Shown here: one piece after another, positions 12,619 to 48,358 of the stretch
Layout of the letters: each line of letters starts with the position of its first letter
Numbering within the stretch: the stretch's first letter is position 1
Assembly (NCBI GenBank): GCA_035627595.1
Contig: DASPLK010000001.1
Span: 5,619 to 69,618 of the forward strand
Direction of reading: 5' to 3'
Length of the DNA: 64,000 nt
DNA from: Minisyncoccota bacterium
GTDB taxonomy: Bacteria > Patescibacteriota > Minisyncoccia > Phycocordibacterales > Phycocordibacteraceae
Notes under the pieces: model-generated
Told to the model about the DNA's origin: nothing
The model's database searches: none
The model's input: only the letters and a program-made list of their open reading frames with translations
Position numbers and translations under genes: made by a program

Positions 12619-14043
12619 TTATGTGAGCCGCGGGAAAAGATTTTCTGGTTTCTTGTTCTCCCGCACCGCATTCAATATCTTCTCTGCTGTATCTGGCATG
12701 ATGGGCGTCAGGTGCGCTGCTATCTTCGCGAGGTGACGGACGAGTTTCTCAATATCAGCCAGCGCGATGTCCTTTTCGTCGGTTTTTATCTTCTTATATG
12801 GCTCTCGCTCAGTCATGTACTCGTCCCCCTTCCCTACGTGCTCAAAGATGAGGTCCATCGCCTCATTGAATGCAAAGCCCTCGATCATCTTCGTAAATGC
12901 TGGCTCGATGGTGACATCCTCTTTTGAAAGCGCGACCGGTGTAAGATGCTCCTCAGCAAGTTTCATCACGCGCGCGACCAGGTTCCCGAGTCCGTTCACG
13001 AGGTTTGCGGTATACCACTCGTCTAAGCGTTCCCAGGTGACGTCCGAATCCTCGACTGGATGCACATGACGCAAGAACAGGTATCGGGTGGCATCGGTAC
13101 CGTATTTCTCCACCAACTCATACGGGCTGATGACATTGCCTAAAGACTTGCTCATTCTTTGTCCGCCCGAGTTAATGAAGCCATGATAGAAGACATGGTC
13201 GGTGTTCTTGATATCGGCGGACATGAGCATCGCCTGCCACATGAGTGACTGGAAACGCACCTGATCCTTGCCTGCCATTTGCACAGTCGTGCCTTCGACC
13301 CAGTATTTCTCAAAATTGCCTGACTCCGGCCACCCGAGCGTGGAGATGTAGCTCGTGAGCGCATCGAACCACACATACATGACCTGTGAGTCATCGCCTG
13401 GTACGGGAACGCCCCAGGTGAGTTTCTCCTTTTGTCGCGAGATGCTGAAATCCTCTAGCCCTCCTGAAACGAAATTGATCGCTTCCTCCCTCCTCCATTC
13501 AGGCACGATGCTGCCGGACTGTGCCAAGTACGAAAGAAGCTTCTCCTGGTATGCACTCAAGCGGAAGAAGTAGTTCTCCTCTGTGAGCTCACGCAATTCA
13601 AGTGAAGGGTGGAGCGCGCACCTTCTCTCCTCTATCTCACGCTCGGTCTTGTACGCTTCGCAGCCGACACAGTAGAGGCCAGTGTAGCTCTTCTTATAGA
13701 TATCGCCCTTAGCCTCACATCGCTTCCACATTTCTTGTGCGGCTCGTATGTGCTTCTCATCCGTAGTGCGAATAAAAGCATCGGTTGTCAGTCCGAGCAC
13801 ATCACGGAGCTTGTAGACCTCATTCGCGTAATGATCAACATACTCCTTCACGCCCTGGCCTTTCTTCTCAGCAGCTTCGTATATCTTCTGTCCGTGCTCG
13901 TCGGTGCCCGTAGTGAAAAATACATCTTCGCCATTAAGGCGCCACATACGAGCGAGCGCATCTGCTTGGATGATCTCAAGGGCGAACCCTATATGTGGAT
14001 CCGCATTCACGTATGGGAGCGTGGTAGTAAGGTACCGGGCCAT
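12619..14043 (-). CDS. metG: Methionyl-tRNA synthetase, short form lacking the C-terminal tRNA-binding domain
   Basis: HIGH-class motif PYVNADPHIGFA and KMSKS KMSKSLGNVI. Only 474 aa. Confidence 0.9.
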   Translation of the reverse strand: MARYLTTTLPYVNADPHIGFALEIIQADALARMWRLNGEDVFFTTGTDEHGQKIYEAAEKKGQGVKEYVDHYANEVYKLRDVLGLTTDAFIRTTDEKHIRAAQEMWKRCEAKGDIYKKSYTGLYCVGCEAYKTEREIEERRCALHPSLELRELTEENYFFRLSAYQEKLLSYLAQSGSIVPEWRREEAINFVSGGLEDFSISRQKEKLTWGVPVPGDDSQVMYVWFDALTSYISTLGWPESGNFEKYWVEGTTVQMAGKDQVRFQSLMWQAMLMSADIKNTDHVFYHGFINSGGQRMSKSLGNVISPYELVEKYGTDATRYLFLRHVHPVEDSDVTWERLDEWYTANLVNGLGNLVARVMKLAEEHLTPVALSKEDVTIEPAFTKMIEGFAFNEAMDLIFEHVGKGDEYMTEREPYKKIKTDEKDIALADIEKLVRHLAKIAAHLTPIMPDTAEKILNAVRENKKPENLFPRLT

Positions 14044-15167
14044 TATGCTGCACGCGAACGCTTGCCACGGTCGACATCGTCCAGGAACTCGCGCAGTGCA
14101 GCCGCAAGCGGGACCGCGAGTAGGACGCCGAGGAATCCGGCCAAAGCGCCACCCGCAATAAGGGCGATGATGACCATGAGCGGCGGAATACCGACGACCT
14201 TATTAACAACCAGCGGATAGATGAGGTGCGCCTCGAGCTGATTTACGATCAGGTAAAGGCCGGCAACCATGAACGCAAGCGGTAATCCTCCAAAAGAGAA
14301 CGAGATAATGACGCCTAGGATACCGGCGATAAGAGAGCCGAATATCGGAATGAGATCAAACAGGGCTGCGACCACCGCAAGCAAAAGTGCGTACGGCACA
14401 CCAAGCAGGACGAGTCCAAGATATACGATGACACCTACGATGAGCGAAAGGACGAGCTGGCCCTGCATCCAGAGACCTATCTTCTTCTTTGCCCTCCCCC
14501 AGAGACCTACGACATAGTCTTCATGCTTCTGCGGGGTGATGAAGCGAAGGAACTGCTCCACGCCTGTCTCCTGAATGGCGAAGTAGAACGAGAGAACAAT
14601 GACGAGCAAAAGGGCGAACACGCCGCCGAAGAATGCGGAGACGAGCTGTATCGCACCTTCGGAACCTTCTGCAACCGCGCTGCGGTATGTGAACAGTGTC
14701 TCGATGATGGAGGCCGCGGTACCGCCTGTATCCGCAGAGAAAAACGGGGTCTGCGTCATGCCGGACAGCCCTGCGGGAAGCTCCATGGTCTCCAGATATG
14801 CAGGCACGGATGTGAGGAAGTTCTGTGTATCGTTAAGAATTGGCGGAAGCATGAAATACACGATGCTGAACAAGGTGCCAAATACCGCCAAGTACATGAC
14901 GAGCACCGAGAGGATGCGCGGAAGCTTGTATCGCATGAAGAATTCGATGCCCGGCTCGAGCGCAGATGCGATTACGACCGCGGTGATGACGAGAAGCGCC
15001 AGATCCTTGAGAATCCAGAGCGCGTACGCGGCAGCGCCCACAGCGATAAGGCGAATGAACGTGCCGGTTGTGACAGAGATAGCTCGCGGCGTTTCCATAT
15101 TGAAAATACTAGCACCAAAACGAAAACGCGACAGCCTAGGGCTGTCGCGTTTGTTACCGCTCCGCAT
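14043..15167 (-). CDS. AI-2E / UPF0118 (PerM) family transporter
   Basis: 374 aa with 8 predicted TM helices and the topology and composition of the AI-2E family. The call is by pattern only. Confidence 0.6.
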   Translation of the reverse strand: MRSGNKRDSPRLSRFRFGASIFNMETPRAISVTTGTFIRLIAVGAAAYALWILKDLALLVITAVVIASALEPGIEFFMRYKLPRILSVLVMYLAVFGTLFSIVYFMLPPILNDTQNFLTSVPAYLETMELPAGLSGMTQTPFFSADTGGTAASIIETLFTYRSAVAEGSEGAIQLVSAFFGGVFALLLVIVLSFYFAIQETGVEQFLRFITPQKHEDYVVGLWGRAKKKIGLWMQGQLVLSLIVGVIVYLGLVLLGVPYALLLAVVAALFDLIPIFGSLIAGILGVIISFSFGGLPLAFMVAGLYLIVNQLEAHLIYPLVVNKVVGIPPLMVIIALIAGGALAGFLGVLLAVPLAAALREFLDDVDRGKRSRAA

Positions 15168-15537
15168 GGCAGTGTTCGTTGCGACTGGACGAATCGCTCA
15201 GGTTTAGGCTCTCGCCATCCCCCATCGGAACATCGCATATAAGTGCGATATCACCCACGACAAGCCAGTCCTCAACCAACGAGCGAGCGCTTTCTCGACT
15301 CACGACCCGGCCTTCCCGTCCGATGAAAAACGGAATGTCCGAAGCGTCGAAGAATTTGCTCGACACGCGGAACGCGACCTGTTCAGTCACGGGGTCATGA
15401 TGCGGAATCACGAAGACCATATCCCGGACGAGCGGTTCATCCTTCGGCGCATCAATCAGGCGGTATGGAAGCTCCTGGGTGCTGCCGGCAGAGAATACGG
15501 CAGCGAATGCGCACATAGACGCAAGCAGAGTTCGCAT
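15154..15537 (-). CDS. Hypothetical secreted protein
   Basis: Signal peptide MRTLLASMCAFAAVFSAGS. 127 aa with no recognised motif. Confidence 0.35.
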   Translation of the reverse strand: MRTLLASMCAFAAVFSAGSTQELPYRLIDAPKDEPLVRDMVFVIPHHDPVTEQVAFRVSSKFFDASDIPFFIGREGRVVSRESARSLVEDWLVVGDIALICDVPMGDGESLNLSDSSSRNEHCHAER

Positions 15538-15596
15538 GACATATCCTTTCTATTTAAACGAGCCCCGCCGTAGCATGGCCCTCACGGCCCAGTAGG

Positions 15597-16925
15597 TCAA
15601 GCGAGCGCGTTACGTAGGTGGTCTGCGACCTCCTCAATAGTCATGCGCTTCTGCTCGCCCGTATCACGATCACGCACAGTAACCGTATCTTTAAGCTCCG
15701 GTGTCTCTCCGAGAGTATCGAAGTCGATGGTAATACACCACGGCGTGCCAATCTCGTCCTGACGTCGGTAGCGTTTACCGATATTGCCGTTATCGTCCCA
15801 GGCAATCGCTGGATGTACCTTCTGGAGAGCTTTGCGTACTTCCCTCGCCTTCTCGACGAGCTCCGGCTTGTTCTTCAAAAGTGGTGACACCATCGCCTTT
15901 ACAGGAGCAACCTTTGGCATGAAGCGGAGCACAGTACGGGTTTCACCGCCAAGCTCATCCTCATCGTATGCTGATGCAAGAACCGCGAGGAAAGTGCGGT
16001 CTAGGCCAAACGACGGCTCGATGACATGTGGGATCAACTTCTCCTTGCTCTCCTCATCAAGATACTCAAGTGAAACGCCTGACGTCTCCATATGTGCGCG
16101 CAAATCAAAATCGGTGCGGTACGCAAGGCCCCACAACTCACGACGACCGAATGGATACTCGTACTCAAGGTCAATTGTGCGCTTGGAGTAATGTGCGAGA
16201 TCTTCTGCTGCAATCTCAGTCGGGTAGAAACGATCCATAGAGAGACCGATGGTCTTAGCGTATGCCGTTACATCAGCTTCCCACTTCGCAAATGATTCCT
16301 CCCATGCATCTGGGCGTATAAAGTACTCAATCTCCATTTGTTCAAACTCACGCAGACGGAAGACGAACTCGCGCGGTGCGATCTCATTACGAAATGCCTT
16401 ACCAATCTGCGCCATGCCGAATGGTAGCTTCGGATGGTACGTGTCAATAATATTCTTGAAATTAACAAACATGCCGCCCGCAGTCTCAGGACGAAGGTAG
16501 GCAGTGGATGATTCATCCTCTGTAGCGCCGACTGATGTTTTAAACATCATGTTGAACTGGCGCGGTTCACTTAATGTCCCCTCTTTCTTACACTCAGGGC
16601 ACGTTGAAAGGTCTTCGAGATGGTCTGCACGGAAGCGTTTCTTGCAGTTACTGCACTCGACCAGCGGGTCGGAGAACCCAGCGACATGACCTGACGCGAC
16701 CCATGCTTTCGGGTTCATAACAATGGAAGCATCCACGCCGTACATGTCATCCCGCTCCTCAACAAACATACGCCACCAGAGCTGTTTCAGGTTGTTCCGA
16801 AGAGCCACGCCATGTGGTCCATAGTCGAAGGTACCGGCCATGCCGCCATATATCTCAGAGCCGGGAAACACGAACCCGCGGCGTTTAGCCAGGGAGACGA
16901 TGGTGTCGAGGGATACATTCTTCAT
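15597..16925 (-). CDS. glyQS: Glycyl-tRNA synthetase (alpha2 dimeric type)
   Basis: N-terminus MKNVSLDTIVSLAKRRGFVFPGSEIYGGMAGTFDYGPHG. Class II motifs and the CNCKKRF...CPECK zinc knuckle. Confidence 0.9.
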   Translation of the reverse strand: MKNVSLDTIVSLAKRRGFVFPGSEIYGGMAGTFDYGPHGVALRNNLKQLWWRMFVEERDDMYGVDASIVMNPKAWVASGHVAGFSDPLVECSNCKKRFRADHLEDLSTCPECKKEGTLSEPRQFNMMFKTSVGATEDESSTAYLRPETAGGMFVNFKNIIDTYHPKLPFGMAQIGKAFRNEIAPREFVFRLREFEQMEIEYFIRPDAWEESFAKWEADVTAYAKTIGLSMDRFYPTEIAAEDLAHYSKRTIDLEYEYPFGRRELWGLAYRTDFDLRAHMETSGVSLEYLDEESKEKLIPHVIEPSFGLDRTFLAVLASAYDEDELGGETRTVLRFMPKVAPVKAMVSPLLKNKPELVEKAREVRKALQKVHPAIAWDDNGNIGKRYRRQDEIGTPWCITIDFDTLGETPELKDTVTVRDRDTGEQKRMTIEEVADHLRNALA

Positions 16926-16933
16926 AGAAAAGG

Positions 16934-18823
16934 TTAGCGGGTGACGGTACCGAGGGAGTTATTGTACCCTGGATCGCTCGTCGTCTCGGTCGTGAGATCA
17001 GACGCAGTGCTGGTGACCTGCTTCTCTACGAAACGGTCGTAGCCTGATATCGTCTGTGGGAACACGAGTACGGGACTTGTACCTCGCTGGGAAGTGCTTG
17101 GCAAGAGTGAGACCTGGAACGCTGCCGTACGTCCGGAAGTTCCCGCAGGCATGTCCCCTACCACCCAGGAAACCTCACGGGTAGAGGCGTTATAGGTTAC
17201 AGAGCCGTCTGCAGGCTGCACCATGCCGGTAAAGGTCACGTACGACGGCAGTGTTGCGGTTACTTTAGCGCCACCAACTGAATTTACGGTATTCGATGCC
17301 GACAGCAATATAGTGTACGTCGTCTCCTGGTCGGCGACTGGCGGCCACGGGCCCGTGTTTGTAAATGGACCTGTGGAGCGCACCGCACGGGAAGTGAGCG
17401 TGAGGTCGGTCGACACCTTAACGGTCTTTGTTACGGTCGAGTTAATAGTTTCTGGAACACCCGACTCCCCGACGCGCCTTCCCGCGACCGATACGGTAAA
17501 TGTCATGGTTGGGTTCCGAAGCGCGGCGAGCTCTGCTTTGGAGCGCATGGGGACCGTGAACGATCCTCCTCCGGAGTCGCCCGGCTGAAGTTCGCGAAGT
17601 CCCGCACTTGTCTCGCGGTTAAAGACGATGGTCTGATCGCTCGAACGATAGAACCCGCTAGAAGCCTTTACATTGCGCGTGTCCGCAGCGTCGCCTGAGA
17701 CGCGAACGTTAATTTGCCCATCGAGTACAGTTGTTGGAAGCGAGTTCGCCCAGCTGAGCGTACCCTGTACCTGCTCCCCTGCCCGTACGATGACGGTGTC
17801 GCTCTCGTCGCGATTAAGGGAAAGTGCCACTCCAAGGAACGGACGCGTGATTGTGACGAGTGCTTCTTGGGTCGTATAGGTGACTGCAAGTGCCTGGCTA
17901 CCCCCACCACGCGGCGTACCCGCAGTGAAGCGGAACACCCGCTCGTCGCCTTGTTGGCCCGTAAGTATGCCGGTAACGCGGATGGTCTTTGATTCTCCCG
18001 GGGCAAGACCGCCGAGCTCGAAGAGATTGCCCTGCGCTGCGGCTGGTTCTGTACTTTGAACTTGGAATCCAAATGGATACTCCCCCATTACTGCGACGCT
18101 TTCAACTGGATCAGTGCCATTCGCACGGGCGATGACTGTAACGGTCACGGGCTGACCGGATGCGCTTTCGCTTAAAGCCGCAACCGAGAGCGAGACAGGC
18201 GAACTTGTGATGGTAAAGGAGTATTCTTCACGCTTAACAAACACGGCGTTCGACCCCTCTATACGGTATTCGAAGGTTACCGGAATGGTGACCACCTGAT
18301 TGGCCGCGCCTGAGATTACCGCGCGCGCGGTGCGGGTCGCTCGCTCCCCGGGCATGACGCTGCCTACGGTATCCGTATAGCGAACCATTTCTTCAGATGT
18401 ATTGTCTGCGGATCGCGTGCCCTCTGGGTATTCGACCGTAAGAAGCGTGCTCTCAATGGGCGCAGGATTCCGGTTGTCTATTGTGATTACAAGCTGCACC
18501 GCATCCCCGCTTGCGATGGAGGTAGGGCCTTTTATCGCTACATCGACTCGATCGGTCGATACCGATCGAGTACCGAAGAAAAGAAATAGGACCGCGATGA
18601 TAGATGCGATTGCGAAAAATGCTATCGCGCCGATCAAGAAGTACGCGGACGGTGAGATGCGCTTTTTCTCAGGCGTAGGCTCAGGCTCCCAATGCCGCTC
18701 AACTGGCGGAGGCGGAGGTGCCGCAACTGGCATGGGAGTTTCCATCCGCGGCAGATCCGCATCCTTGGCGTAGAGCTTATGCTGAAGGTCTTCAAGGCCG
18801 TGCAGGTTCTCGTCTTCGGGCAT
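16934..18823 (-). CDS. Membrane-anchored surface protein of unknown function
   Basis: Cytoplasmic N-terminus with a PPPPP run, a single TM helix (YFLIGAIAFFAIASIIAVLFLFF), then ~530 aa rich in T, S, V and G suggesting beta-sandwich repeats. Confidence 0.45.
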   Translation of the reverse strand: MPEDENLHGLEDLQHKLYAKDADLPRMETPMPVAAPPPPPVERHWEPEPTPEKKRISPSAYFLIGAIAFFAIASIIAVLFLFFGTRSVSTDRVDVAIKGPTSIASGDAVQLVITIDNRNPAPIESTLLTVEYPEGTRSADNTSEEMVRYTDTVGSVMPGERATRTARAVISGAANQVVTIPVTFEYRIEGSNAVFVKREEYSFTITSSPVSLSVAALSESASGQPVTVTVIARANGTDPVESVAVMGEYPFGFQVQSTEPAAAQGNLFELGGLAPGESKTIRVTGILTGQQGDERVFRFTAGTPRGGGSQALAVTYTTQEALVTITRPFLGVALSLNRDESDTVIVRAGEQVQGTLSWANSLPTTVLDGQINVRVSGDAADTRNVKASSGFYRSSDQTIVFNRETSAGLRELQPGDSGGGSFTVPMRSKAELAALRNPTMTFTVSVAGRRVGESGVPETINSTVTKTVKVSTDLTLTSRAVRSTGPFTNTGPWPPVADQETTYTILLSASNTVNSVGGAKVTATLPSYVTFTGMVQPADGSVTYNASTREVSWVVGDMPAGTSGRTAAFQVSLLPSTSQRGTSPVLVFPQTISGYDRFVEKQVTSTASDLTTETTSDPGYNNSLGTVTR

Positions 18824-18857
18824 TTCCCAAAGTATAGCGCACGCGGAGATATGATGA

Positions 18858-19424
18858 TTACAGTCCTGACGCCTCTATGCCACGATTCACACGCGTAATC
18901 AGGTCTTTGCGCTTAGCAAGCGCATATTCCCGTGCGGCATTCCCAAAATGACCATCCGTCTGCGGCACCTGCTCTCCCGCATCGAGTCCTGCATCCTGCA
19001 GCAGGTACAGCGCAGCCAGGGTCTCGGCGGCATCCTGCTCTTCGTCCGCCAGCGTCGGTAGTATTTCGAGATACTCCTTGAAGAGCTCGTATATTTCTCC
19101 TCCGCCACTATCAGTCACCAGGCGTAGCATGAGGTTCGCGACGCGGCCGGCGCGCTCGCGTGCGTCTGGTGCTAAATCAGTAAAGTAATCGTGCGCAAGA
19201 ATGGCGCCTGAGAGTCGCCATCCCTCCTTTCCCCTAAGCAAGATCACATCAGATTGAGCGAGCGTCGTGAGCGCGGCGGACAATTTAGCGCCAGGCTTCC
19301 GCACCCCCTGCGCGCGTGCGCGCACAAGCCCGAGCTCGCTTGTTAAAAGAGAGACGAGCGAACTTGCTTCTCCAAGGGGAGATCTCCCGAGCACAATTGC
19401 CTCTGTCGCGTACTTATGACGCAT
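18858..19424 (-). CDS. recO: DNA repair protein RecO (short form)
   Basis: N-terminal OB-fold pattern AIVLGRSPLGEASSLVSLLTSELGLVRARAQGVRKPGAKLSAAL is typical of RecO. 188 aa. It overlaps ileS by 11 nt. Confidence 0.6.
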   Translation of the reverse strand: MRHKYATEAIVLGRSPLGEASSLVSLLTSELGLVRARAQGVRKPGAKLSAALTTLAQSDVILLRGKEGWRLSGAILAHDYFTDLAPDARERAGRVANLMLRLVTDSGGGEIYELFKEYLEILPTLADEEQDAAETLAALYLLQDAGLDAGEQVPQTDGHFGNAAREYALAKRKDLITRVNRGIEASGL

Positions 19425-22400
19425 TTGTGATGGTAAAGCCGACGGAGCCCGTCGATAACTCAGCGGTATGTGGCACTTCCGGAAGCGGAGCGAACTCTAT
19501 ATACGCTGTGCCTGGTACCTGCGCGTCAGAAAGAGTCTCCCGTGCAGATTCCTCAATGGTGATCACGACCTTGTCGCGTGGAGAGAGGTCCATGCTCTTT
19601 CTGGCATCCGCGACCGCGCGCGCGAACTCGCGCTGATCTCCCCTGCGAATAAGCTCGGGTGTAAGTTCCGTATCAAGCGCCACGCTTCCCTCTTCCTTGG
19701 AGGCGTCCATAACTACCTCTTCAACGTTGAGTTCTTCTTTGATGAGCGCGAGGAGTTCCATAGAGAGTGCCGAGCCACCAAGTGTGAGCTTGCCAAGCGG
19801 TTGGCGGACTTTCACATTTGCCCTCTGACGCTCCATAAGCGCAGTCGAGGTGAGTGCGCGCACACGCTTCATATCAGTAAGAAGTGCGGCGTCCCTGTTC
19901 CCAAAGAGTGCGGTAAAGAACTGCTTCTTCATTACCGGCCACTTTGCCAAATGCACACTGATCGGCTCACTTTCCGTACGGATTGCACGGAATATCTCAT
20001 CAGCCACAAACGGCATCACTGGGGCAATGACCTTAGAGAATTCCTTGAGCACATGCTCAAGGGTACGGAGCGCTGCCTGACGGTCAGCCTCGTCGTTCGC
20101 TTTAATGCGATCGCGCGAGCGGCGTACGTACCAGGTGGAAAGATCCTCGACGAAGTCGCGTAGCGGGCGAGCGGCACGCACCAGGTCATAGCGGTCAAAA
20201 GCATCGGTCGTGCCCTCGATAACCTCGGCGAGACGCGCCAGTATCCAGCGGTCGAGTACGTGCGTACTCTCCTTCCCGCGGAGCGATGGATCGAGATCGT
20301 CCTTATACAGCGCATAAAACGCGTAAACGTTCCGGAGCATGTTTACTACGCGATTCTGCGCTTCTTTCACATCTTCGTCGCGGAATGTAAGATCTTCAGC
20401 CTGCATTACTACACTGCCCATAAGGTAGTAGCGGAACGCGTCGGCACCATACAGATCGAAGAGTTGGTACGGATCGGTGTAATTCTTCTTGGACTTCGAA
20501 AGCTTCTCACCGTTTGCGGCGAGAATCGTGCCGGTTGTAACTACGTTCCTAAATGGTGCCCTATCAAAGATCGATACCGAGATTGCGTGCATGTAGTAGA
20601 ACCATGCGCGGGTCTGACCGATGTACTCGGATATGAAATCACCAGGCGAGCGCTTCTCGAAGTCGCCCTTGTGCTCGAAGGGATAGTGGTACTCCGCAAA
20701 TGGCATGGAGCCTGACTCGACCCAACAATCTACAACCTCTGGAATACGCGTAAGCGCAGCGCCCTCTTCGTCGATGAGCTCGACGCGGTCGATGTATGGG
20801 AGATGGAAATCAAGCTCGTAGTTGCGATTGTGTGGAAGTGGCGTAAACGGGAGTTCCATTACCGCACCTGGCTTATGCGACAGGGTCGATGCGTGCTGGC
20901 GTGATTTCTCCTTATCAAGCCCCTCGGCGACTGCGGTGAGTGTTTCAAGACCGCAGCCATGTGTAACGATAAGCACGCACTCATTCTGGTGCGTCTTTTC
21001 TATCTCATAGAGAAACTCGCCAAAGCGGCGCTTTACGTCCTGATAGCTTTCGCCGCCTTCTACCTGCACGTCGTACGCGTGGTCATTCCTCCAAGCGATG
21101 AATTCTTCAAGCGGACGGCCCTCCAGCTTCCCGAACGAAAACTCGCGAAGCCGATCGTCAAAGACGATGTCCGCCTTATCGATGCCAAGACCTTCGGCGG
21201 CCATTTCTGCGGTTTCCTTCGTACGGCGTACGGGCGACGCATAGATGCGCGTCGGCGCACAGGTCTTTAGGAACTCGACGCCTTTCTTTACATCTTCCTT
21301 CCCCTCTTCGGTAAGGCCAAACGTATCAAGCGCGCTGCTGAGGGTCTTGGACGCGGTGTTCTCCGCCTGTCCGTGACGCATGATGTAGTAGCGGTTGCCG
21401 CTCTTCTTCGTGCGCATTTTCAGCTCCTCCAAGGAACCAACGACCGTGACGGCGCCCGTTTTGTCTTTCCATATCGGAAGCGGACTCGCCCAGAAACGGT
21501 TGCGGGAGATCGTCCAGTCAGGAGCTGACTCTATGTTCTTCTTAAACCTGCCGTGCTTTAGGTGCTCCGGCGACCAGTTGATCTTCTCGTTCTCCGCAAG
21601 CATGCGATCCTTCACTGCCTGGATGTCGATGAACCAGCTCGAGACTGCGTTATAGATGAGCGGCGTACCACAGCGGTAGCAGTGCGGATACGAGTGCGTG
21701 TTAGGTGCTTTTGCAAAGAGAAGTCCGCGCGTCTCGAGGTCGTCCTTGATCAGCGGTTCCGCCTTTTTTATATATTGACCCTGGAGGAACTCAGGCGCAT
21801 CTACGTTATAAGTCGCGTTTGGGTTGAGGAGCGGCACCATCGGGAGTCCTTCTTTAAGCCCAAGCTGGTAGTCGTCTTCGCCATAGATGACAGCTGTGTG
21901 CACGACACCAGTACCATCGGTGGTAGTCACGAAGTCTGCAGATAGAACTTCCCACTTCTTCCCCACATGCGCGCGTGCTTTTGCAACGTCATACAGCGGT
22001 TCGTACGAGATTCCTGTAAGGTCGCGGCCCTTCAGCTCCTTCTCGAACTCCGTTACGCCATACGTCTCCATTCGCTCCTTAGCGAGTACGACTGGCACGT
22101 TATTTATACGCACAATGACGTAATCGATGTCTGGACCGACCGCGAGGCCGACATTGCCCGGCAGTGTCCATGGCGTCGTGGTCCACGCGAGTATGTGCGT
22201 GCCTTTTGGAAGACCCTTTGATTCAGGATCGATTATCTTGAACTTTACCGTTACCGCTTCCTCGGTGATGTCCTTATAGGTATTGTCCATCGCAATCTCG
22301 GCCTTTGCGAGCGGAGTCTCGCAGTGTGGGCAGTACATGAGGACCTTGCGTCCTTCATAAAGGCGCCCCTTCTTATGTATTTCTGAAAGCGCCCACCACA

Positions 22401-22872
22401 CACTCTCGATGAACGAGTTGTCCATCGTCTTGTACGAATTATCGAAATCAACAAAGCGCCCGAGCCGCTCAATGTACCGCTTCCACTCATGCACGTATGC
22501 AAGCACCATGGAGCGTGCCTTCTCGTTAAAGTTCTCAATGCCGAGCTCGAGAATGTCCTTCTTGCTTTTGAGACCTAGCTCCGTCTCTACAAGTGATTCG
22601 ATCGGAAGTCCGTGCGTGTCCCAGCCCCAGCGACGGCGCACACGGTATCCCCGCATGGTCTTATATCGCGGAATGACATCCTTAGATGTTGAAGCGAGGA
22701 AGTGGCCAGGGTGCGGGAGACCAGTCGCAAATGGCGGTCCATCATAGAACGTGAACTCGCCCTTCGGGGCAGGCTTTTCGAGTGACTTCTCGAATATCTG
22801 CTGTTCCTTCCAAAACGCGAGTACCTCCTCCTCGCGCTTTGCTATATCCGATTTTCCCCGCTCATCTGCCAT
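19414..22872 (-). CDS. ileS: Isoleucyl-tRNA synthetase (type 2) carrying an inserted histidine-phosphatase (PGAM-like) domain
   Basis: PHPGHFLAS (HIGH region), CP1 editing block TTPWTLPGN and KLSKSKKN (KMSKS). IleRS-collinear blocks flank a ~200-aa insert at about aa 487-688. The insert holds YIMRHGQAEN ... VLIVTHGCGL. Confidence 0.9.
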   Translation of the reverse strand: MADERGKSDIAKREEEVLAFWKEQQIFEKSLEKPAPKGEFTFYDGPPFATGLPHPGHFLASTSKDVIPRYKTMRGYRVRRRWGWDTHGLPIESLVETELGLKSKKDILELGIENFNEKARSMVLAYVHEWKRYIERLGRFVDFDNSYKTMDNSFIESVWWALSEIHKKGRLYEGRKVLMYCPHCETPLAKAEIAMDNTYKDITEEAVTVKFKIIDPESKGLPKGTHILAWTTTPWTLPGNVGLAVGPDIDYVIVRINNVPVVLAKERMETYGVTEFEKELKGRDLTGISYEPLYDVAKARAHVGKKWEVLSADFVTTTDGTGVVHTAVIYGEDDYQLGLKEGLPMVPLLNPNATYNVDAPEFLQGQYIKKAEPLIKDDLETRGLLFAKAPNTHSYPHCYRCGTPLIYNAVSSWFIDIQAVKDRMLAENEKINWSPEHLKHGRFKKNIESAPDWTISRNRFWASPLPIWKDKTGAVTVVGSLEELKMRTKKSGNRYYIMRHGQAENTASKTLSSALDTFGLTEEGKEDVKKGVEFLKTCAPTRIYASPVRRTKETAEMAAEGLGIDKADIVFDDRLREFSFGKLEGRPLEEFIAWRNDHAYDVQVEGGESYQDVKRRFGEFLYEIEKTHQNECVLIVTHGCGLETLTAVAEGLDKEKSRQHASTLSHKPGAVMELPFTPLPHNRNYELDFHLPYIDRVELIDEEGAALTRIPEVVDCWVESGSMPFAEYHYPFEHKGDFEKRSPGDFISEYIGQTRAWFYYMHAISVSIFDRAPFRNVVTTGTILAANGEKLSKSKKNYTDPYQLFDLYGADAFRYYLMGSVVMQAEDLTFRDEDVKEAQNRVVNMLRNVYAFYALYKDDLDPSLRGKESTHVLDRWILARLAEVIEGTTDAFDRYDLVRAARPLRDFVEDLSTWYVRRSRDRIKANDEADRQAALRTLEHVLKEFSKVIAPVMPFVADEIFRAIRTESEPISVHLAKWPVMKKQFFTALFGNRDAALLTDMKRVRALTSTALMERQRANVKVRQPLGKLTLGGSALSMELLALIKEELNVEEVVMDASKEEGSVALDTELTPELIRRGDQREFARAVADARKSMDLSPRDKVVITIEESARETLSDAQVPGTAYIEFAPLPEVPHTAELSTGSVGFTITNAS

Positions 22873-22913
22873 AGTTTCCTTATCCTAGCGTTTAGGCGCT
22901 AAAAAGGAAACGG

Positions 22914-24584
22914 TTACATACGTTCAGGTGCCGGTATCCCTAGAAGCCAGAGGCCGCGCTCCATGGTGCGCACGAATCCTTGAGCCACCATAAGTTTGTA
23001 CGCCTCGTACTCACCGTCTCTAATTCGCTCCTTCGCATAAAACGCATTCCACTCTCCTGCCAACTGCGTAAGGTAGGTGGCAATATGCTGCGGCGCTTTT
23101 TCTGCTTCTGCGCGTTCGGCAACTTTTGGAAAACGCGCGATGAGTCGCTCGATGGTGTACGGCTCATCGGGAGCGTTCTGGATGCTCGGCCGCACGCTTG
23201 ATTGCGCGAGGATGGATTTCGCACGTACGAGCGCGTACTGCAGGTACGGTCCCGAGTCGCCGTCTAGCGAGAGCGACTTCTCTGGATCAAATACAACATT
23301 CGTGCCAGGAGACGCGCGAAGGATCATGTACTTGAGCGCACCGACTGCAACTTTCTCTGCAACAAGCGGGTCGTCGTTCTTACCAAGCGCCTTCTCCATC
23401 ACTTCTTCGATGATGCCAGCTGCGGTTAGAACATTTCCCTTTCGAGAGGACATCTTGCCGGTTGTAAGCTGTAAAAGGCCGTGAGGCACGTGATGCGTCT
23501 TTTGTGCAATCAATGGTGCTATCTCCTCGATCGCGGCTAGGAACACTTTGAAATGCCCTACCTGCTCCAGGCCAGTAAGTATGTAGGAATGATCGTTTGG
23601 AATACGCTGCTCCTTTAGGAATGCGAGTCCAATCTCTTTCGTCTCATAGGTTGGCGTGCCGCGACTCGTGATGAAAACGAGTGTATGAAGACCCTTTGCC
23701 TCTCCTTGGTACACGACCGCGCCTTCACTTCTCGTAAAGATGCCCTTCTCTAGGGCGTCCCCTACTACCTCCATGCCTATAGGTGTGGTCTCACTCTCAA
23801 ATATGAAATAGTCGAAATCCGAATTGAGTACGCGGTATATCTCTTTAAATGCACTAAACGCAGCGTCGCGCCCCTTCCGCCAAAGCTCAAGAAGCGCGCG
23901 ATCTTCCTCTGTGTGCTCGGACTCGTCCTTTGCGAGTGCTGTGTACAGCGCGACATTGAGCTCATCAATTTCAGCCTTTGCTACCTCGCTCTCTTCGTAC
24001 GCCCGCCCGCCCGCTTCGTACGCGCTTCCTACCTCCTTAGCTGTAGCTGGCTCCGTGATGCCCTTCTTACGCAGGCCCCAAATACCCTTTGCGACATGTG
24101 GTCCTACATCGCCGCCATACGAATCGCGTATAACGTGTGCGCCGGTATTCTCTACGAGACGCGAAAATGATTCGCCGATAACTGTGCTCATAAGATGGCC
24201 AATATGCATCTCCTTGAATGGGTTCGGGCATGAGTACTCGACCACAACCCGCTCTCCAGCACGTGAGGAGCCTTTTCCCCAGTCTTCGTCTATATCCGCG
24301 AGTGTCTGCGCGAGGTACGTCCGTGAGCTTGTTACGTTGATAAATCCAGGACCAGCAACATCCACCGACGTCGCGTCGTCTTTAAGTGCATCCTTAAGGA
24401 TTGCGGCAAGATCCTCCGCAAGGGTGCGCGGATTCACATTGAGCTCTTTGGCTGCAGCAAGTGCTGCATTGACCGCGTAATCGCCATGCCTCAAGTCGCC
24501 AGGCCACTCCACCGCAAAGGAAACGTTGGGGGCACCTCTCGCCTTCAGCGCATCAGCAATAATTGTACGTATGCGGTCTTCCAT
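22914..24584 (-). CDS. argS: Arginyl-tRNA synthetase; the ORF track extends to 24650, but the start is probably the ATG at 24584
   Basis: MEDRIRTIIADALKARG N-terminus, HIGH motif CPNPFKEMHIGHLMSTVIGES, and a KMSSRKGN-like motif near the C-terminus. Confidence 0.9.
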   Translation of the reverse strand: MEDRIRTIIADALKARGAPNVSFAVEWPGDLRHGDYAVNAALAAAKELNVNPRTLAEDLAAILKDALKDDATSVDVAGPGFINVTSSRTYLAQTLADIDEDWGKGSSRAGERVVVEYSCPNPFKEMHIGHLMSTVIGESFSRLVENTGAHVIRDSYGGDVGPHVAKGIWGLRKKGITEPATAKEVGSAYEAGGRAYEESEVAKAEIDELNVALYTALAKDESEHTEEDRALLELWRKGRDAAFSAFKEIYRVLNSDFDYFIFESETTPIGMEVVGDALEKGIFTRSEGAVVYQGEAKGLHTLVFITSRGTPTYETKEIGLAFLKEQRIPNDHSYILTGLEQVGHFKVFLAAIEEIAPLIAQKTHHVPHGLLQLTTGKMSSRKGNVLTAAGIIEEVMEKALGKNDDPLVAEKVAVGALKYMILRASPGTNVVFDPEKSLSLDGDSGPYLQYALVRAKSILAQSSVRPSIQNAPDEPYTIERLIARFPKVAERAEAEKAPQHIATYLTQLAGEWNAFYAKERIRDGEYEAYKLMVAQGFVRTMERGLWLLGIPAPERM

Positions 24585-24606
24585 GTTGGGACTATAACAG
24601 AAAATG

Positions 24607-24647
24607 CCCTGGTGCGGCGGCCGTGGTAGCTGGCCGCCGCACCAGGG
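24607..24647 (-). terminator. Long GC hairpin (ccctggtgcggcggccgtggtagctggccgccgcaccaggg) between the 24660 gene end and the argS start
   Basis: ~17-bp inverted repeat. Confidence 0.4.
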
Positions 24648-24659
24648 CACCTTTCCTTT

Positions 24660-40841: not shown

Positions 40842-40916
40842 TGGGCGACTACCGGGAATCGAACCCGAATCGACAGGACCACAACCTGTAGTGTTAACCG
40901 TTACACCATAGCCGCC
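40842..40916 (-). tRNA. tRNA-His (GTG) with a genome-encoded G-1 and an 8-bp acceptor stem
   Basis: Revcomp is GGCGGCTATGGTGTAACGGTTAACACTACAGGTTGTGGTCCTGTCGATTCGGGTTCGATTCCCGGTAGTCGCCCA. The cloverleaf folds, the anticodon loop is TTGTGGT, and C73 pairs with G-1. Confidence 0.8.
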
Positions 40917-40948
40917 ATGAACTCGCTTCTTATACCACGCGACGCGCT

Positions 40949-41518
40949 CTAACGGTAGCTCGGATTCTCTTCAGGTACGCCCTGGGACGCGTTTGCGAGT
41001 CGTGCGAGCGCAAACAAGAGGGACGAGAGCCGGTTCGCGTATGCCCTCGACGGATCCGAAATCTTTCGAAGTCCCAACTCATGCACCCCGACCAAGCGGC
41101 GTTCGGAGCGACGGGAGAGCGTGCGTGCAACATCGAGCATCGCGGACAGTTCGGTGCCACCAGCGATCGAGAATGATACGACCGGTGGAATAGCCGTCTC
41201 GATGGTATTAACCAACGTCTCGACTTGGGTCACCTTCGTCTTTCTAACCTTCTTGGGCGCGCCGGCAACCTCTGCCTGGATGATGAAAAGGGTCTCTTGC
41301 ACGTCGTGAAGAATTACAGAGGTCTTGTGCGTCTTCTTCCCTACCGTGATCGTTGGATCGATGCCATCACGAGCGCGTATTTTGCAGAACCCCAAGAACG
41401 CATTCAATTCATCCAACGTGCCAAGGCACTCCGGTACTTCGGATGATTTAGAAATACGGCTCTGGTTACACCCGAAGGTCTTAGTGGTGCCGTTGTCGCC
41501 TTTGCCGGTATAGAGCAT
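40949..41518 (-). CDS. ATP:cob(I)alamin adenosyltransferase, PduO type
   Basis: MLYTGKGDNGTTKTFGCNQSRISKSSEVPECLGTLDELNAFLG N-terminus and the helical-bundle C-terminus typical of PF01923. Confidence 0.8.
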   Translation of the reverse strand: MLYTGKGDNGTTKTFGCNQSRISKSSEVPECLGTLDELNAFLGFCKIRARDGIDPTITVGKKTHKTSVILHDVQETLFIIQAEVAGAPKKVRKTKVTQVETLVNTIETAIPPVVSFSIAGGTELSAMLDVARTLSRRSERRLVGVHELGLRKISDPSRAYANRLSSLLFALARLANASQGVPEENPSYR

Positions 41519-41536
41519 AGGACTTCAAAGATCTCC

Positions 41537-41959
41537 CTACTGCCAGAGCGTAAGAATGACCGCTGCAATAAGAAGCGCAACAAAGTTCTCCGCAATATGA
41601 AAGAGGAAAAGCTTCCAGTCTCCATCCTCAAACAGGACATCGTTTGCTTTAAGCGGAACGGTAAATCCGATCCAGACGAGAAGCGCGAGCATGAATGCTC
41701 CGCCAATACCGATAGGGCTGAGGAGTCGCACAAGAAGCGCGAGCACGAATGCAGTCACAAGCGCGCCGAGTGCCGCGAGCGCCATTGCTTTCTTCGCGCT
41801 TATCTTCATGTTCTTTACGCTCTCCGGCGTATATCCCTTGAGCTTCATCCAGTGCTTGCCGAACGCCGGGCCGTACCATAGCGCGCCGGTGCCCATGATG
41901 AGAACTGCGGCGAGGAGGACGGAGAGGTAATTGATAGCGACATCCATGAGAAATTCCAT
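41537..41959 (-). CDS. DUF1761-like small membrane protein
   Basis: 140 aa with 4 TM helices and the GALWYGPAFGKHWMKL motif. Confidence 0.45.
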   Translation of the reverse strand: MEFLMDVAINYLSVLLAAVLIMGTGALWYGPAFGKHWMKLKGYTPESVKNMKISAKKAMALAALGALVTAFVLALLVRLLSPIGIGGAFMLALLVWIGFTVPLKANDVLFEDGDWKLFLFHIAENFVALLIAAVILTLWQ

Positions 41960-42020
41960 TACAGGGTATGGCTCTTAGTATAAACCAATGGCCCCGCAAA
42001 TGCGGGGCCATTGGCGCCGG

Positions 42021-42102
42021 TGCCCAGGAGAGGACTCGAACCTCCACCCCCGAAAGGACATCCACCTCAAGGATGCGTGTATACCAATTTCACCACCTGG
42101 GC
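42021..42102 (-). tRNA. tRNA-Leu (GAG), long variable arm; 3' CCA not encoded
   Basis: Revcomp is GCCCAGGTGGTGAAATTGGTATACACGCATCCTTGAGGTGGATGTCCTTTCGGGGGTGGAGGTTCGAGTCCTCTCCTGGGCA. The anticodon loop is TTGAGGT. Confidence 0.8.
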
Positions 42103-42164
42103 AGGTGTGTCTGGCACTATAGCCGCTTCCCTTCCTTATGACAATAGGAAAAGAGAAAGGAGGC

Positions 42165-42743
42165 TTACGCCTCCTTCTTCTCTTCAGTCTCAGGAGCTGT
42201 CTCCTCGACTGCTGGTGCTTCCGGCTCACCTGCCTTCTCCTCTTCAGGAGCCATCTCGGTGCCGTCTGGTGCCTGTGCAGGATCCTGCTCCATCACCTCT
42301 TCAGGAGTTACCTCCTCCGGCTTCTCCTCCTCCTTGAAGTCATCCGTGGACATCTTCACGAGACGCATGTTGCGGAGCTGGCGGCGTACCTCACGTGCGA
42401 CCTTTTCGCGGATGAAGTAGAGCTTCGCGCGGCGGACCTTCGAGCGACGAACAATCTCGATCTTCTCGATGAACGGTGCGTATAGGGGGAAGATCTTTTC
42501 GACGCCAACACCCGACATGGTCGCGCGGACCGTGAAGGTAGCGCCTGCCTCGGTGCCGTGCTTCACGGCGATGACGAGACCCTCGAACATCTGGACGCGG
42601 GTCTTGCCTTTCTCAACGATTTTCTGGTGGACACGAACGGTATCGCCCGGCTTGATGCCGAGCTTTACACGCTCCTCGGTCCGTACAGGAGTTATCACGT
42701 TTTGCATGGGCCAGACTGTACCATAGGGCCTATTTAAACGCAA
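42165..42743 (-). CDS. rplS: 50S ribosomal protein L19 with an acidic Glu/Pro-rich C-terminal extension
   Basis: The [44 protein letters not shown] core and a ~60-aa [11 protein letters not shown] tail. Confidence 0.85.
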
Positions 42744-42756
42744 AAGGCGCCGCGCC

Positions 42757-43494
42757 TTAGGCGCTCCTTAAATACTCAGTTTCCGGGAATTTTTTGACCG
42801 CTTCCGCCATATCTGCCGGGATGGGTGAAGTTATCGAAACCCGCTCCCCGCTTATAAGCGGTATCTCGAGTCCGTAAGCATGGAGCCCGAGCCGAGGAAG
42901 CCCTAGGTCGCACGGACGCTTTGGCGCGTACAGAGAATCGCACACGATCGGATGATGGATCGCTTTCAGATGCACGCGGATCTGGTGCGTTCGGCCGGTA
43001 CGCGGCTTGGCTTCGATGAGGGAGTGGGTACCTATATCGGAAACGACGCGGTAATGCGTGATAGCGTCGCGCATGGTGCCGCGCGCTTTGGGCTGCGCGC
43101 TTCTCAAACGGAAATCCTTTCGAGAGCGGCCAATAGCAAAGTCGATGACGCCCTCGCGCTCTTTAGGCACGCCGTATGTAAATGCGAGATAGGTCTTCTG
43201 TACATCGCGGCTCTTAAACGCTTCCTTTAGGTGTGCGTGTGCCTCCTTAGTCTTACAAAATACGAGAACGCCCGAGGTCTCACGGTCGAGTCGATGCACG
43301 ACGCCGGGACGATGGAGCTCTTTGCCGTTTACCAAATACTGCGTCTCCCCCACCTCTACAGATGCAGGGTATGTGCGCGCGAACCAATCGCTCGCGGTCT
43401 CATCAGTCGTTGTTGCATCCGGATGCGTCATGACGCCTGCGGGCTTATCGACTGCAACTATCTCTTCGTTCTCAAATAGAATCTTGAGGTCCAT
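42757..43494 (-). CDS. RluA-family pseudouridine synthase
   Basis: [13 protein letters not shown] catalytic motif. Confidence 0.85.
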
Positions 43495-43526
43495 AGGACT
43501 ACGCTAACGCGAACGGTGCCTTTTCG

Positions 43527-44246
43527 CTACTTTCCCATCCGCCGCTCGCGCTTTTGAAACTCAGCGAGCATGCTGAGAAGTTCTTCCTTTTCGAAATCCG
43601 GCCAGAGCGTATCAGTGAACATAAGCTCGCTGTACGCGCTGCCCCAGGTAAGAAAATTAGAGAGTCGCATCTCTCCGCCTGTCCGGATAATGAGGTCCGG
43701 ATCAAGAAGCCCTTTGCTCCACATCGCTTCCTTAAGCGAGTCTTCTGTCACTTCTTTTCCGGCCAGCTTCCTCGCCGCATCAAGTATTTCGGCACGTCCG
43801 CCATACGAGAGCGCGATAATAAGCGTGCTGCGCCCATTACCCTTCGTGCGCGCTTCTACTCCCTGCATCTTTCTTCTGAACATAGGCGAAAACCGCTCGC
43901 TCTCGCCAATGAAGCGTATGCAAATCCCATCCTCCTCCAGTTCCTGTAGACCCTCTGAAAGCACGTGCTCAAGCAGTTGCATGAGGTACGACACCTCCGC
44001 CTCGCTCCTGTTCCAGTTCTCGGTTGAGAACGCATAGACCGTAAGCTCCCGCACACCCGCTTCTCGCGCCCAACGAGCCACTTCCTTCAGCTTTTCGAAT
44101 CCATGCTTATGACCATCCATACTCAATAGGCCGTGCGCTTTCGCCCAGCGACGATTGCCGTCCATGATGATGCCAACCGCATCAGGCATAAGTAATGGAA
44201 AACTTTGTGTACTGCCCGATCGCCGGAGACCAGCTGACAGCGACAT
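43527..44246 (-). CDS. uppS: Undecaprenyl diphosphate synthase; the start is possibly at Met20 (44189)
   Basis: IIMDGNRRWA, AFSTENWNR and the C-terminal RTGGEMRLSNFL. Confidence 0.9.
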   Translation of the reverse strand: MSLSAGLRRSGSTQSFPLLMPDAVGIIMDGNRRWAKAHGLLSMDGHKHGFEKLKEVARWAREAGVRELTVYAFSTENWNRSEAEVSYLMQLLEHVLSEGLQELEEDGICIRFIGESERFSPMFRRKMQGVEARTKGNGRSTLIIALSYGGRAEILDAARKLAGKEVTEDSLKEAMWSKGLLDPDLIIRTGGEMRLSNFLTWGSAYSELMFTDTLWPDFEKEELLSMLAEFQKRERRMGK

Positions 44247-44457
44247 TCTCTACGTTCGCGAGCAAGGGACCACGATGCAGTTTCTCGATATAACGCTCCA
44301 ATTTTTTGTGCTCCCCTTCCGCTGTGACGCGCACCGTGCCGTCTGGAAGATTCATAACTTCACCCACGAGTTTCAGGCCGCGCGCCTTCCGCTGGGCAAA
44401 ATCCCGATACATAACCATCTGCACCCTGCCTGATACGATTGCCTCAATCCGCTCCAT
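44182..44457 (-). CDS. acyP: Acylphosphatase; only the C-terminal 92 codons of the 195-aa ORF-track entry
   Basis: IVSGRVQMVMYRDFAQRKARGLKLVGEVMNLPDGTVRVTAEGE matches the acylphosphatase signatures. The upstream part of the ORF runs through tRNA genes. Confidence 0.65.
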   Translation of the reverse strand: MERIEAIVSGRVQMVMYRDFAQRKARGLKLVGEVMNLPDGTVRVTAEGEHKKLERYIEKLHRGPLLANVENVAVSWSPAIGQYTKFSITYA

Positions 44458-44531
44458 AGATAGATAGAACCAGAGCATAGCGCACTGGGTTACTTTAAAA
44501 ACGTGAAGAAGTGCGTTAAGGTATTCCCGAT

Positions 44532-44604
44532 GCGCGCTTAGCTCAGTTGGTAGAGCACCCCGTTTACACCGGGATGGTCGGGGGTTCGAGTCCCTCAGCG
44601 CGCA
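44532..44604 (+). tRNA. tRNA-Val (TAC)
   Basis: GCGCGCTTAGCTCAGTTGGTAGAGCACCCCGTTTACACCGGGATGGTCGGGGGTTCGAGTCCCTCAGCGCGCA. The anticodon loop is TTTACAC. Confidence 0.8.
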
Positions 44605-44611
44605 CCGATAG

Positions 44612-44640
44612 AAAAAGGACGCATTTATGCGTCCTTTTTC
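44612..44640 (+). terminator. Rho-independent terminator (aaaaaggacgcatttatgcgtcctttttc) after tRNA-Val
   Basis: Perfect hairpin followed by a T5 run. Confidence 0.6.
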
Positions 44641-44645
44641 ATTTG

Positions 44646-44727
44646 TGCGCATGAGAGGACTCGAACCTCCAAGGATTGCTCCATACGCTTCTGAGGCGTA
44701 CGCGTATACCAATTCCGCCACATGCGC
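44646..44727 (-). tRNA. tRNA-Leu (CAG), long variable arm
   Basis: Revcomp is GCGCATGTGGCGGAATTGGTATACGCGTACGCCTCAGAAGCGTATGGAGCAATCCTTGGAGGTTCGAGTCCTCTCATGCGCA. Confidence 0.8.
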
Positions 44728-48352: not shown

Positions 48353-48358
48353 CACCCT

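Follow-up and report, generated by a model that had tools for sequence, protein, structure and literature searches.

Why should an isoleucyl-tRNA synthetase (IleRS) carry a phosphatase inside its own reading frame? The question arose from a stretch of 64,000 nucleotides from a Minisyncoccota bacterium (assembly GCA_035627595.1, contig DASPLK010000001.1), which is called the window here, at its full length. Its ileS gene was found to be one open reading frame (ORF), free of stops and frameshifts, and its product matched GenBank HYE22855.1 at 100%, a Candidatus Paceibacterota entry labelled 'class I tRNA ligase family protein'. A preliminary description of the window had proposed an in-frame histidine-phosphatase domain at 20811-21414 of this gene, and the domain was found there, at residues ~487-688. 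The insert is recognized here as an independently folding domain of histidine phosphatase (His_Phos) branch 1, with a complete catalytic set and under purifying selection, and phosphatase activity is predicted for it from sequence and model. The insert and its surroundings in the synthetase, i.e., the connective peptide (CP) subdomains, are listed below with reference to Thermus thermophilus (Tth) IleRS.

19414..22872, minus strand: ileS, the 1152-aa type-2 isoleucyl-tRNA synthetase with the nested phosphatase (single ORF, profiles)
21475..21525, minus strand: CP2-CP3 linker APDWTISRNRFWASPLP, residues 450-466 (A450-F460 invariant in the family)
21403..21474, minus strand: CP3 subdomain, N-terminal half, residues 467-490 (alignment, model)
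20815..21402, minus strand: inserted segment relative to T. thermophilus IleRS, residues 491-686 (replaces Tth residues 483-487)
20851..21393, minus strand: histidine-phosphatase (His_Phos branch 1) alpha/beta fold, residues 494-674 (PF00300, AlphaFold, Foldseek)
21373..21378, minus strand: R499-H500 of the RHG motif, with H500 as the predicted phospho-accepting nucleophile (copy alignment)
21223..21225, minus strand: R550, the second phosphate-pocket arginine (copy alignment)
21049..21051, minus strand: E608 of the GGES motif, predicted general acid/base (copy alignment)
20959..20961, minus strand: H638, the second catalytic histidine, THG motif (copy alignment)
20731..20814, minus strand: CP3 subdomain, C-terminal half, residues 687-714 (alignment)

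The identity of the insert was recognized by profile search and structure prediction. PF00300 (His_Phos_1) matched residues 496-660 at E=8.5e-34, with 117-122 bits against a gathering cutoff of 21.7. The motifs quoted in the preliminary description, i.e., YIMRHGQAEN, SPVRRTKETAE, EGGES, VLIVTHGCGLETL, HPGH and KLSKS, were all present. In the AlphaFold model of the whole protein (predicted local distance difference test, pLDDT, 86.7; predicted template modelling score, pTM, 0.76), the insert was the most confident part, with a pLDDT of 94-98, and the CP3 plus insert module modelled alone reached a pLDDT of 92 and a pTM of 0.89. By Foldseek, this module was superposed on solved histidine phosphatases with a root-mean-square deviation of 2.0-2.6 Å over 175-196 residues. 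The matches were iPSP (4IJ5/4IJ6), Rv2419c (4PZ9/4QIH), PhoE (1H2E) and the riboflavin-pathway HFP (9MMH). PspA/iPSP was the best structural match, PhoE was the nearest solved relative by sequence, and TIGAR was likewise among the nearest metabolic-phosphatase structures. With the branch 1 phosphatases PhoE/YhfR (1EBB, 1H2E), iPSP/PspA (4IJ5), glucosyl-3-phosphoglycerate phosphatase Rv2419c (4PZ9) and HFP (9MMH), the insert has in common the fold, the Arg-His...Arg...Glu...His set, a similar size and a reduced cap region. However, those are free-standing, usually dimeric metabolic enzymes, whereas the window domain is nested in an aminoacyl-tRNA synthetase and its relatives are nested in or operon-coupled to one.

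The name 'PGAM-like' in the preliminary description was right as to the superfamily but not as to the phosphoglycerate mutases. It would be very surprising if the cell's glycolytic cofactor-dependent phosphoglycerate mutase (dPGM) were embedded in IleRS. The insert does resemble dPGM models in Pfam and NCBIfam, and annotation by hidden Markov models (HMM) would read it as PGAM-family, so that HMM-based metabolic reconstructions of candidate phyla radiation (CPR) genomes may count it as 'phosphoglycerate mutase'. However, every dPGM equivalog model scored far under its cutoff, i.e., dPGM_arch (82-87 bits, cutoff 225), GpmB (58-62, cutoff 261), pgm_1 (26, cutoff 82) and PRK14115 (21, cutoff 305). 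The Asn after RHG that marks dPGM (position 505) was S, N, H, T or W among embedded copies. Because the mutase models fall so far short, this Asn varies and the closest structures are phosphatases (PhoE, iPSP, GpgP), the domain is taken to be of the phosphatase type. Models of known phosphatases also stayed under cutoff, i.e., alpha-ribazole phosphatase CobC (TIGR03162, 82-87 bits, cutoff 162.9), phosphoserine phosphatase PspA (NF045917, 60-65 bits, cutoff 350) and phosphohistidine phosphatase SixA (TIGR00249, 35.5 bits, cutoff 74.5, its N-terminal half alone matching). Membership in dPGM, CobC, PspA or SixA was thus ruled out. Since the insert reaches none of the NCBIfam equivalog cutoffs, homology does not allow a substrate to be assigned to it.

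The active site was compared among 93 IleRS-embedded copies with 30-50% mutual identity. The catalytic set was essentially invariant, each tandem copy included: R499 and H500 in 86/86, R550 in 90/91, E608 in 91/92, R616 in 89/91 and H638 in 89/90. No copy with a degenerate active site was found among the 93. Outside these residues, the phosphatase domain is the most variable part of the IleRS protein. The ratio of nonsynonymous to synonymous substitutions (dN/dS) of the insert, computed for the pairs with its two nearest relatives (87% and 82% identity), was 0.10-0.27, compared with 0.02-0.16 in other IleRS regions and similar to the anticodon-binding and C-terminal domains, with dS near saturation. 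The preliminary description had left room for a structural relic. Active-site invariance together with purifying selection refutes this, and a pseudogene is ruled out on the same grounds.

The synthetase around the insert is of the type-2 (eukaryote-like) bacterial kind, as proposed before. TIGR00392, the ileS equivalog, scored 812 bits (cutoff 621) on the 1152-aa product, and the Pfam layout was tRNA-synt_1 in two parts (E=5e-123), His_Phos_1, Anticodon_1 and DUF5915. The full-length AF2 model found type-2 IleRSs as its best Foldseek matches, i.e., 8C8U/8C8V, 8WND and 1ILE, with E down to 1e-77. The protein was collinear over its full length with T. thermophilus IleRS (1ILE) and Priestia megaterium IleRS2 (8C8U/8C8V). 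It shares with them HIGH, KMSKS, the CP1 editing domain, CP2, CP3, the anticodon-binding domain and the C-terminal DUF5915 (Foldseek target TM 0.74-0.81). Unlike them, it has a ~196-residue phosphatase in place of a CP3 loop of 5 residues (Tth) or 19 residues (IleRS2), and the zinc ligands are lost. The mupirocin-resistant IleRS models MupA/MupB (NF000257/NF000258) gave 619-634 bits, under their cutoff of 1900. The synthetase features in the window are as follows.

22702..22713, minus strand: HIGH signature motif, HPGH, residues 54-57 (H54 and G56 invariant in the family)
21682..22278, minus strand: CP1 editing domain, residues ~199-397 (matches 1WK8, 1UDZ and 1UE0, structures of the isolated IleRS editing domain)
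20491..20505, minus strand: KMSKS signature motif, KLSKS, residues 790-794 (K790, S792, K793 and S794 invariant)
19795..20253, minus strand: anticodon-binding domain, residues 874-1026 (Pfam)

The CP1 editing motifs W230-T236, G320, G322, H325 and D334 were invariant in the family alignment. With HIGH, KMSKS, the editing motifs and the anticodon domain all kept, the window gene is judged to encode an intact type-2 IleRS, for which aminoacylation is predicted. Most close relatives have Ser for His at the fourth position of the HIGH motif, with HSGS in 70/119 and HQGS in 27/119 (alignment A1), compared with HPGH in the window protein. More distant relatives and IleRSs lacking an insert have HYGH. 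A link between the HxGS form and the phosphatase was considered and dropped, as the variant is restricted to a subclade.

The insertion point was located by alignment. Query residue 490 corresponds to Tth 482 and query 687 to Tth 488, so that ~196 residues in the window IleRS stand where T. thermophilus has a 5-residue loop. The counterpart of ~209 residues in P. megaterium IleRS2 is 19 residues long. The point lies in a loop of the CP3 subdomain, which is small, peripheral and structurally variable. Its topology is a zinc-binding beta-alpha-alpha-beta-beta in Tth, beta-beta-alpha-alpha in Candida and three helices in S. aureus (PMC7191050). CP3 starts a few residues past the CP2-CP3 linker, and in yeast IleRS the segment homologous to this linker lines the pocket for the 3'-CCA terminus of tRNA (PMC7955072). 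The zinc-ligand cysteines of CP3 were lost in the window protein, and in some relatives they were retained on either side of the insert. The junctions between CP3 and insert were conserved and confidently modelled. The preliminary description had placed the domain in the catalytic core. In sequence it does fall within the second half of the Rossmann fold, but the host site is peripheral CP3 and not the core proper, so 'surface loop of CP3' fits better.

Does the architecture belong to the organism or to the assembly? The nearest 120 clusters (90% identity), down to 61% identity, all had PF00300 inside an IleRS of 1108-1187 aa. When the insert alone was searched exhaustively against 1.84 billion representatives, 802 matched at E<=1e-10. 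Among the best 150 of these 802 (50%-identity representatives), 86 were embedded in IleRS, with IleRS flanks as low as 31-45% identical to the query. At GTDB loci with the domain, the frame was free of stops in 80/80 examined; the count covers these 80, and 300 further tblastn-positive loci lie outside it. The loci with nested ileS were Paceibacteria-type metagenome-assembled genomes and one closed chromosome, CP060229.1, with taxon labels of Paceibacteria, Parcubacteria, Nomura-, Zambryski-, Adler-, Taylorbacteria and Minisyncoccia. Many contigs with Paceibacteria-type nested ileS were labelled 'uncultured Candidatus Saccharibacteria bacterium' (L009, L011, L015 and others) and one 'Spirochaetia bacterium' (L057). 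Probably the taxon labels are generic or wrong, or the contigs were mis-binned.

An artefact or selfish insertion, i.e., an assembly chimera, a decaying pseudogene segment or an intein-like element, has nothing in its favor beyond the unusual architecture, and its probability is negligible. Because the same in-frame arrangement recurs in 120/120 clusters and 80/80 GTDB loci, a chimera is excluded for practical purposes, and the claim that this is a domain insertion and not a fusion artefact stands. The same in-frame junctions were met across hundreds of independent assemblies. Recurrence in independent genomes and the GC content of the insert (0.54-0.58, same as the flanks) rule out the chimera, and the selection on the insert likewise argues against decay. 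The intein-like element was ruled out because the fold is His_Phos and not HINT, and the +1 nucleophile is not conserved, i.e., the residue after the conserved 'PLPHN' is variable and not Cys, Ser or Thr. The 'PLP' itself belongs to CP3 and is also found in the insert-less CP3 of T. thermophilus.

The same subfamily was also found outside the synthetase. Free members of ~190 aa share 34-37% identity with the insert, and their genes lie directly upstream of insert-less ileS. In the examples P0163, P0210, P0181 and P0201, each adjoins such an ileS. The gene order at these split loci is argS-hp-ileS-recO, with the free phosphatase gene (hp) between argS and ileS and its stop 0-13 nt from, or overlapping, the ileS start. 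Metagenome contigs were scanned with an alignment of close free members (A4), and a locus was counted as informative when it had >=600 nt downstream. Seventy loci were informative. The phosphatase was nested in 36 of them and adjacent to ileS in 31, ileS lay at another place in the locus in 2, and 1 had no ileS. At all 31 adjacent loci, phosphatase and ileS had an ORF each; the median gap was 4 nt, and many pairs overlapped by 1-10 nt. The IleRSs of these loci had 13-41 aa at the CP3 site, compared with ~200 when nested. A free and a nested copy together were found in no locus of the scan. As the domain is, with few exceptions, either nested or adjacent and never both in the scanned loci, phosphatase and IleRS form a conserved two-part module. 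The module takes two forms, i.e., a translationally coupled gene pair or one polypeptide, and the subfamily is almost always physically tied to ileS (69/70 informative loci, over IleRS divergence down to ~33% identity).

The neighbors of ileS in the window fit the same gene order.

22914..24650, minus strand: argS (arginyl-tRNA synthetase), kept upstream neighbor of ileS
18858..19424, minus strand: recO-like gene, kept downstream neighbor of ileS (start overlaps the ileS end by 11 nt)

The argS-ileS-recO order was conserved at GTDB loci, with RecO downstream in 65/68 and ArgRS upstream in 48/59. At one locus with a split pair (L087, minus strand, ~4350), the insert-less ileS beside P0181 has one TGA in frame where the PHC[W/Y]RC zinc motif has its conserved W/Y, and the gene caller split ileS in two there. 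UGA recoding, a pseudogene or a sequencing error could account for the TGA. Free proteins of ~360-430 aa with two tandem His_Phos domains of a related subfamily, both usually catalytically intact, were also seen (P0172, P0192-P0194, P0206, P0239, P0247).

Nesting occurred at no fewer than three IleRS sites. The CP3 loop is the site in the window and in most others. The HYPF-QTRGWF loop carries the domain in P0149 (copy 1), P0212 and P0213 (copy 2), and a site past KMSKS, before the anticodon-binding domain, carries copy 2 of P0149. Tandem arrays of 2-3 domains occur, with the catalytic residues retained in each copy. In a crude neighbor-joining tree without support values, insert-less IleRSs were interspersed with insert-bearing ones.

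A valyl-tRNA synthetase (ValRS) with nested His_Phos was found in P0142. Among its 120 listed ValRS relatives, of Gracilibacteria/Peregrinibacteria type, 71 had 1-4 nested His_Phos domains, with 74 copies in CP3 and 9 in CP2. These copies (n=84) retain the catalytic residues, R and H of RHG in 83/83, and the equivalent of H638 is N in 9/84. The ValRS inserts scored ~217 bits among themselves, against 73 to IleRS inserts and 70 to free proteins. As they are far closer to one another, the scores suggest that this phosphatase clade was captured independently, at a site homologous to CP3. Some Gracilibacteria-type ValRSs (P0416, P0451, P0425) have further Pfam domains, i.e., PF04480 (DUF559, endonuclease-like) and PF00216 (HU DNA-binding). 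In these lineages, class Ia synthetases seem generally prone to acquiring domains.

An intact catalytic set does not by itself mean hydrolysis. The domain might sense a ligand and regulate IleRS allosterically, or serve as an oligomerization or scaffold module, with the catalytic residues kept for binding. The residues that bind phosphate are also the catalytic ones, so conservation cannot separate binding from turnover; many His_Phos enzymes are dimeric, and the CP3 junctions are rigid, conserved and confidently modelled. However, the acid/base E608 and both histidines are kept beyond what binding needs, the free-standing relatives resemble ordinary enzymes, and no degenerate active site was seen among IleRS copies, with N for H638 in a few ValRS copies. 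A non-hydrolytic role is thus considered improbable.

What, then, would a phosphatase do on IleRS? The reading that we hold with some confidence, if short of firm, is a bifunctional enzyme in which a charging IleRS is joined to an autonomous, tethered histidine phosphatase. The IleRS part would charge tRNA-Ile as usual, and the tethered domain would work through a phospho-His500 intermediate on a diffusible phosphorylated molecule, whose turnover would be beneficial close to the synthetase at 1:1 stoichiometry. The leading candidates for the substrate would be nucleotide-type by-products or substrates of aminoacylation. Because the site of attachment, the number of copies and the covalent linkage are all variable, coupling by co-localization or complex formation would be expected rather than a fixed active-site-to-active-site geometry. 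The same variability together with the net acidic inserts favors a diffusible substrate over a fixed geometry on the tRNA body. The ancestral state may have been the translationally coupled hp-ileS pair within the argS-hp-ileS-recO cluster. In-frame capture into permissive IleRS loops (CP3; HYPF/QTRGWF; after KMSKS) would have followed several times, at times with tandem duplication, and a separate phosphatase clade would have been captured into CP3/CP2 of ValRS in Gracilibacteria-type lineages.

Some points weigh against the bifunctional enzyme. In the close family, the inserts have a net charge of -5.6 +/- 3.3, which does not point to an RNA-binding surface. The order of genes around ileS can persist without a functional link, as in the proteobacterial ribF-ileS-lspA. 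Patescibacteria fuse housekeeping enzymes promiscuously, e.g., TsaC with Ogt-like, glycosylase, TruB and His_Phos partners. The direction from adjacent to nested, which we infer, depends on the multiplicity of sites and on the crude tree without support values. At the one locus examined, no phosphatase gene was found beside an insert-less valS.

The acidic surface, the promiscuous fusions and the unlinked ileS operons elsewhere also suit the main rival, i.e., that the phosphatase is an unrelated hitch-hiker. It would be an ordinary metabolic enzyme of phosphoserine, sugar-phosphate or cofactor pathways, tied to ileS by operon history and genome compaction, with nesting ensuring its expression. 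The nearest structures are indeed metabolic small-molecule phosphatases (iPSP, GpgP, PhoE, riboflavin-pathway HFP, TIGAR), attachment site and copy number vary, and there is a functionally unrelated His_Phos fusion, i.e., RNase H/acid phosphatase (NF005567, 76 bits). However, the link to ileS held in all but one informative locus across deep IleRS divergence, and the domain was captured at three or more IleRS sites and, as a separate clade, at the homologous CP3 site of ValRS. Such repeated, host-specific capture is not expected of an unrelated enzyme. The hitch-hiker is therefore regarded as possible but rather unlikely.

A stronger form of the bifunctional reading is put forward tentatively, at less than even chance. 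Class Ia synthetases of Patescibacteria, i.e., IleRS in Paceibacteria and ValRS in Gracilibacteria-type lineages, might have the domain as an obligate catalytic partner that does a new accessory step tied to aminoacylation. The step might be removal of a 2'/3'-phosphate from damaged tRNA ends before charging, or hydrolysis of a nucleotide or pyrophosphate by-product where it is produced. It might also be reversal of an inhibitory phosphorylation of the synthetase, e.g., at the KMSKS-loop serine, a target of Hip-type toxin kinases in other enzymes of class I. If this were true, it would be a new kind of synthetase accessory activity beside editing.

How far has such an arrangement been seen before? 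The CP1 editing domain of IleRS, ValRS and LeuRS is the classic catalytic domain nested in a Rossmann fold, and connective-peptide loops tolerate whole domains. To our knowledge, no catalytic domain other than the editing domains has been described as nested within the class Ia core. CP1, which hydrolyses mischarged tRNA, is ancient and universal, whereas the window phosphatase is lineage-restricted, of unrelated fold and predicted to cleave phosphate esters. The bifunctional RNase H/acid phosphatase (NF005567; Rv2228c/SCO2299 type) likewise joins a His_Phos branch 1 (CobC-like) domain to a nucleic-acid enzyme. Its model gave 76-80 bits on the insert, under the cutoff of 326. That type is an end-to-end fusion with RNase H as partner, whereas the window domain is nested inside another domain. 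A curated precedent of IleRS with an extra catalytic domain, an N-acetyltransferase, is ileS_w_GNAT (NF040702). The window protein scored 347 bits against it (cutoff 1999) and had no GNAT Pfam match, so it does not belong there. The relative P0200 joins both, i.e., His_Phos in CP3 and a GNAT domain.

P0200 has three in-frame extras in all: a transposase-like domain in the CP1 region, the nested His_Phos in CP3 and the GNAT domain downstream of CP3. Extras span residues 326-472 and 921-1065, and the model of the REP-associated tyrosine transposase/IS200-like family (NF047646) gave 81 bits (cutoff 80). The gene may be chimeric or degenerate, or a case of extreme domain nesting.

No account of a histidine phosphatase inside an aminoacyl-tRNA synthetase, or paired with one, was found by full-text literature search. 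The remark in the preliminary description that no phosphatase or mutase fold was known in such an enzyme thus agrees with the searchable literature. The sequences are public but generically annotated, and accessory domains in IleRS are not unprecedented, as the curated NF040702 family shows. What is new here is the free genes of the same subfamily directly upstream of insert-less ileS. Aminoacyl-tRNA synthetases are among the best-studied enzymes, and the NCBI pipeline calls these essential ones merely 'class I tRNA ligase family protein'. That an intact-looking phosphatase is nested in IleRS or coupled to it across a very large radiation of bacteria, with a separate clade in ValRS, points to an unrecognized requirement or regulatory layer of translation in ultra-small, host-dependent bacteria. 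The specialist interest comes from the breadth, the active-site conservation and the duality of split and nested forms of this predicted phosphatase. The question is directly approachable with recombinant protein. The natural insertion sites also map the IleRS and ValRS loops that tolerate whole domains, which is of use in protein engineering.

Other fusions were noted in the same organisms. Patescibacterial TsaC (Sua5/YrdC, t6A synthesis; P0278-P0392) is commonly fused to an Ogt/MGMT-type DNA_binding_1 domain, and rarer partners are methylpurine-DNA glycosylase, TruB and His_Phos. The TsaC-Ogt fusion appears to be widespread. The Sua5/YrdC-His_Phos fusion P0238 was considered for guilt by association and set aside as uninformative, because there are 5 clusters in all and patescibacterial TsaC is fused to many unrelated partners. 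A His_Phos protein with an AlkB-like part (P0225) was also set aside, as a single case whose 2-oxoglutarate-oxygenase match was under the Pfam cutoff. In a preprint on the CCA-adding enzyme, no mention of HD-domain loss in Patescibacteria was found.

No tRNA-Ile gene was found within the 64 kb of the window, and nine tRNA genes were found scattered over 16 kb at 40843-56527, i.e., His, Leu (two), Val, Arg (three), Ser and Lys. Four aminoacyl-tRNA synthetase genes lie within 12 kb on the minus strand (12619-24650), i.e., those of MetRS (12619-14043), an HGTP-type synthetase of class II (15597-16925), IleRS and ArgRS. Between these genes lie those for RecO, an AI-2E transporter and a DUF11-like surface protein of 629 aa, and the order of this cluster is kept in relatives (L082).

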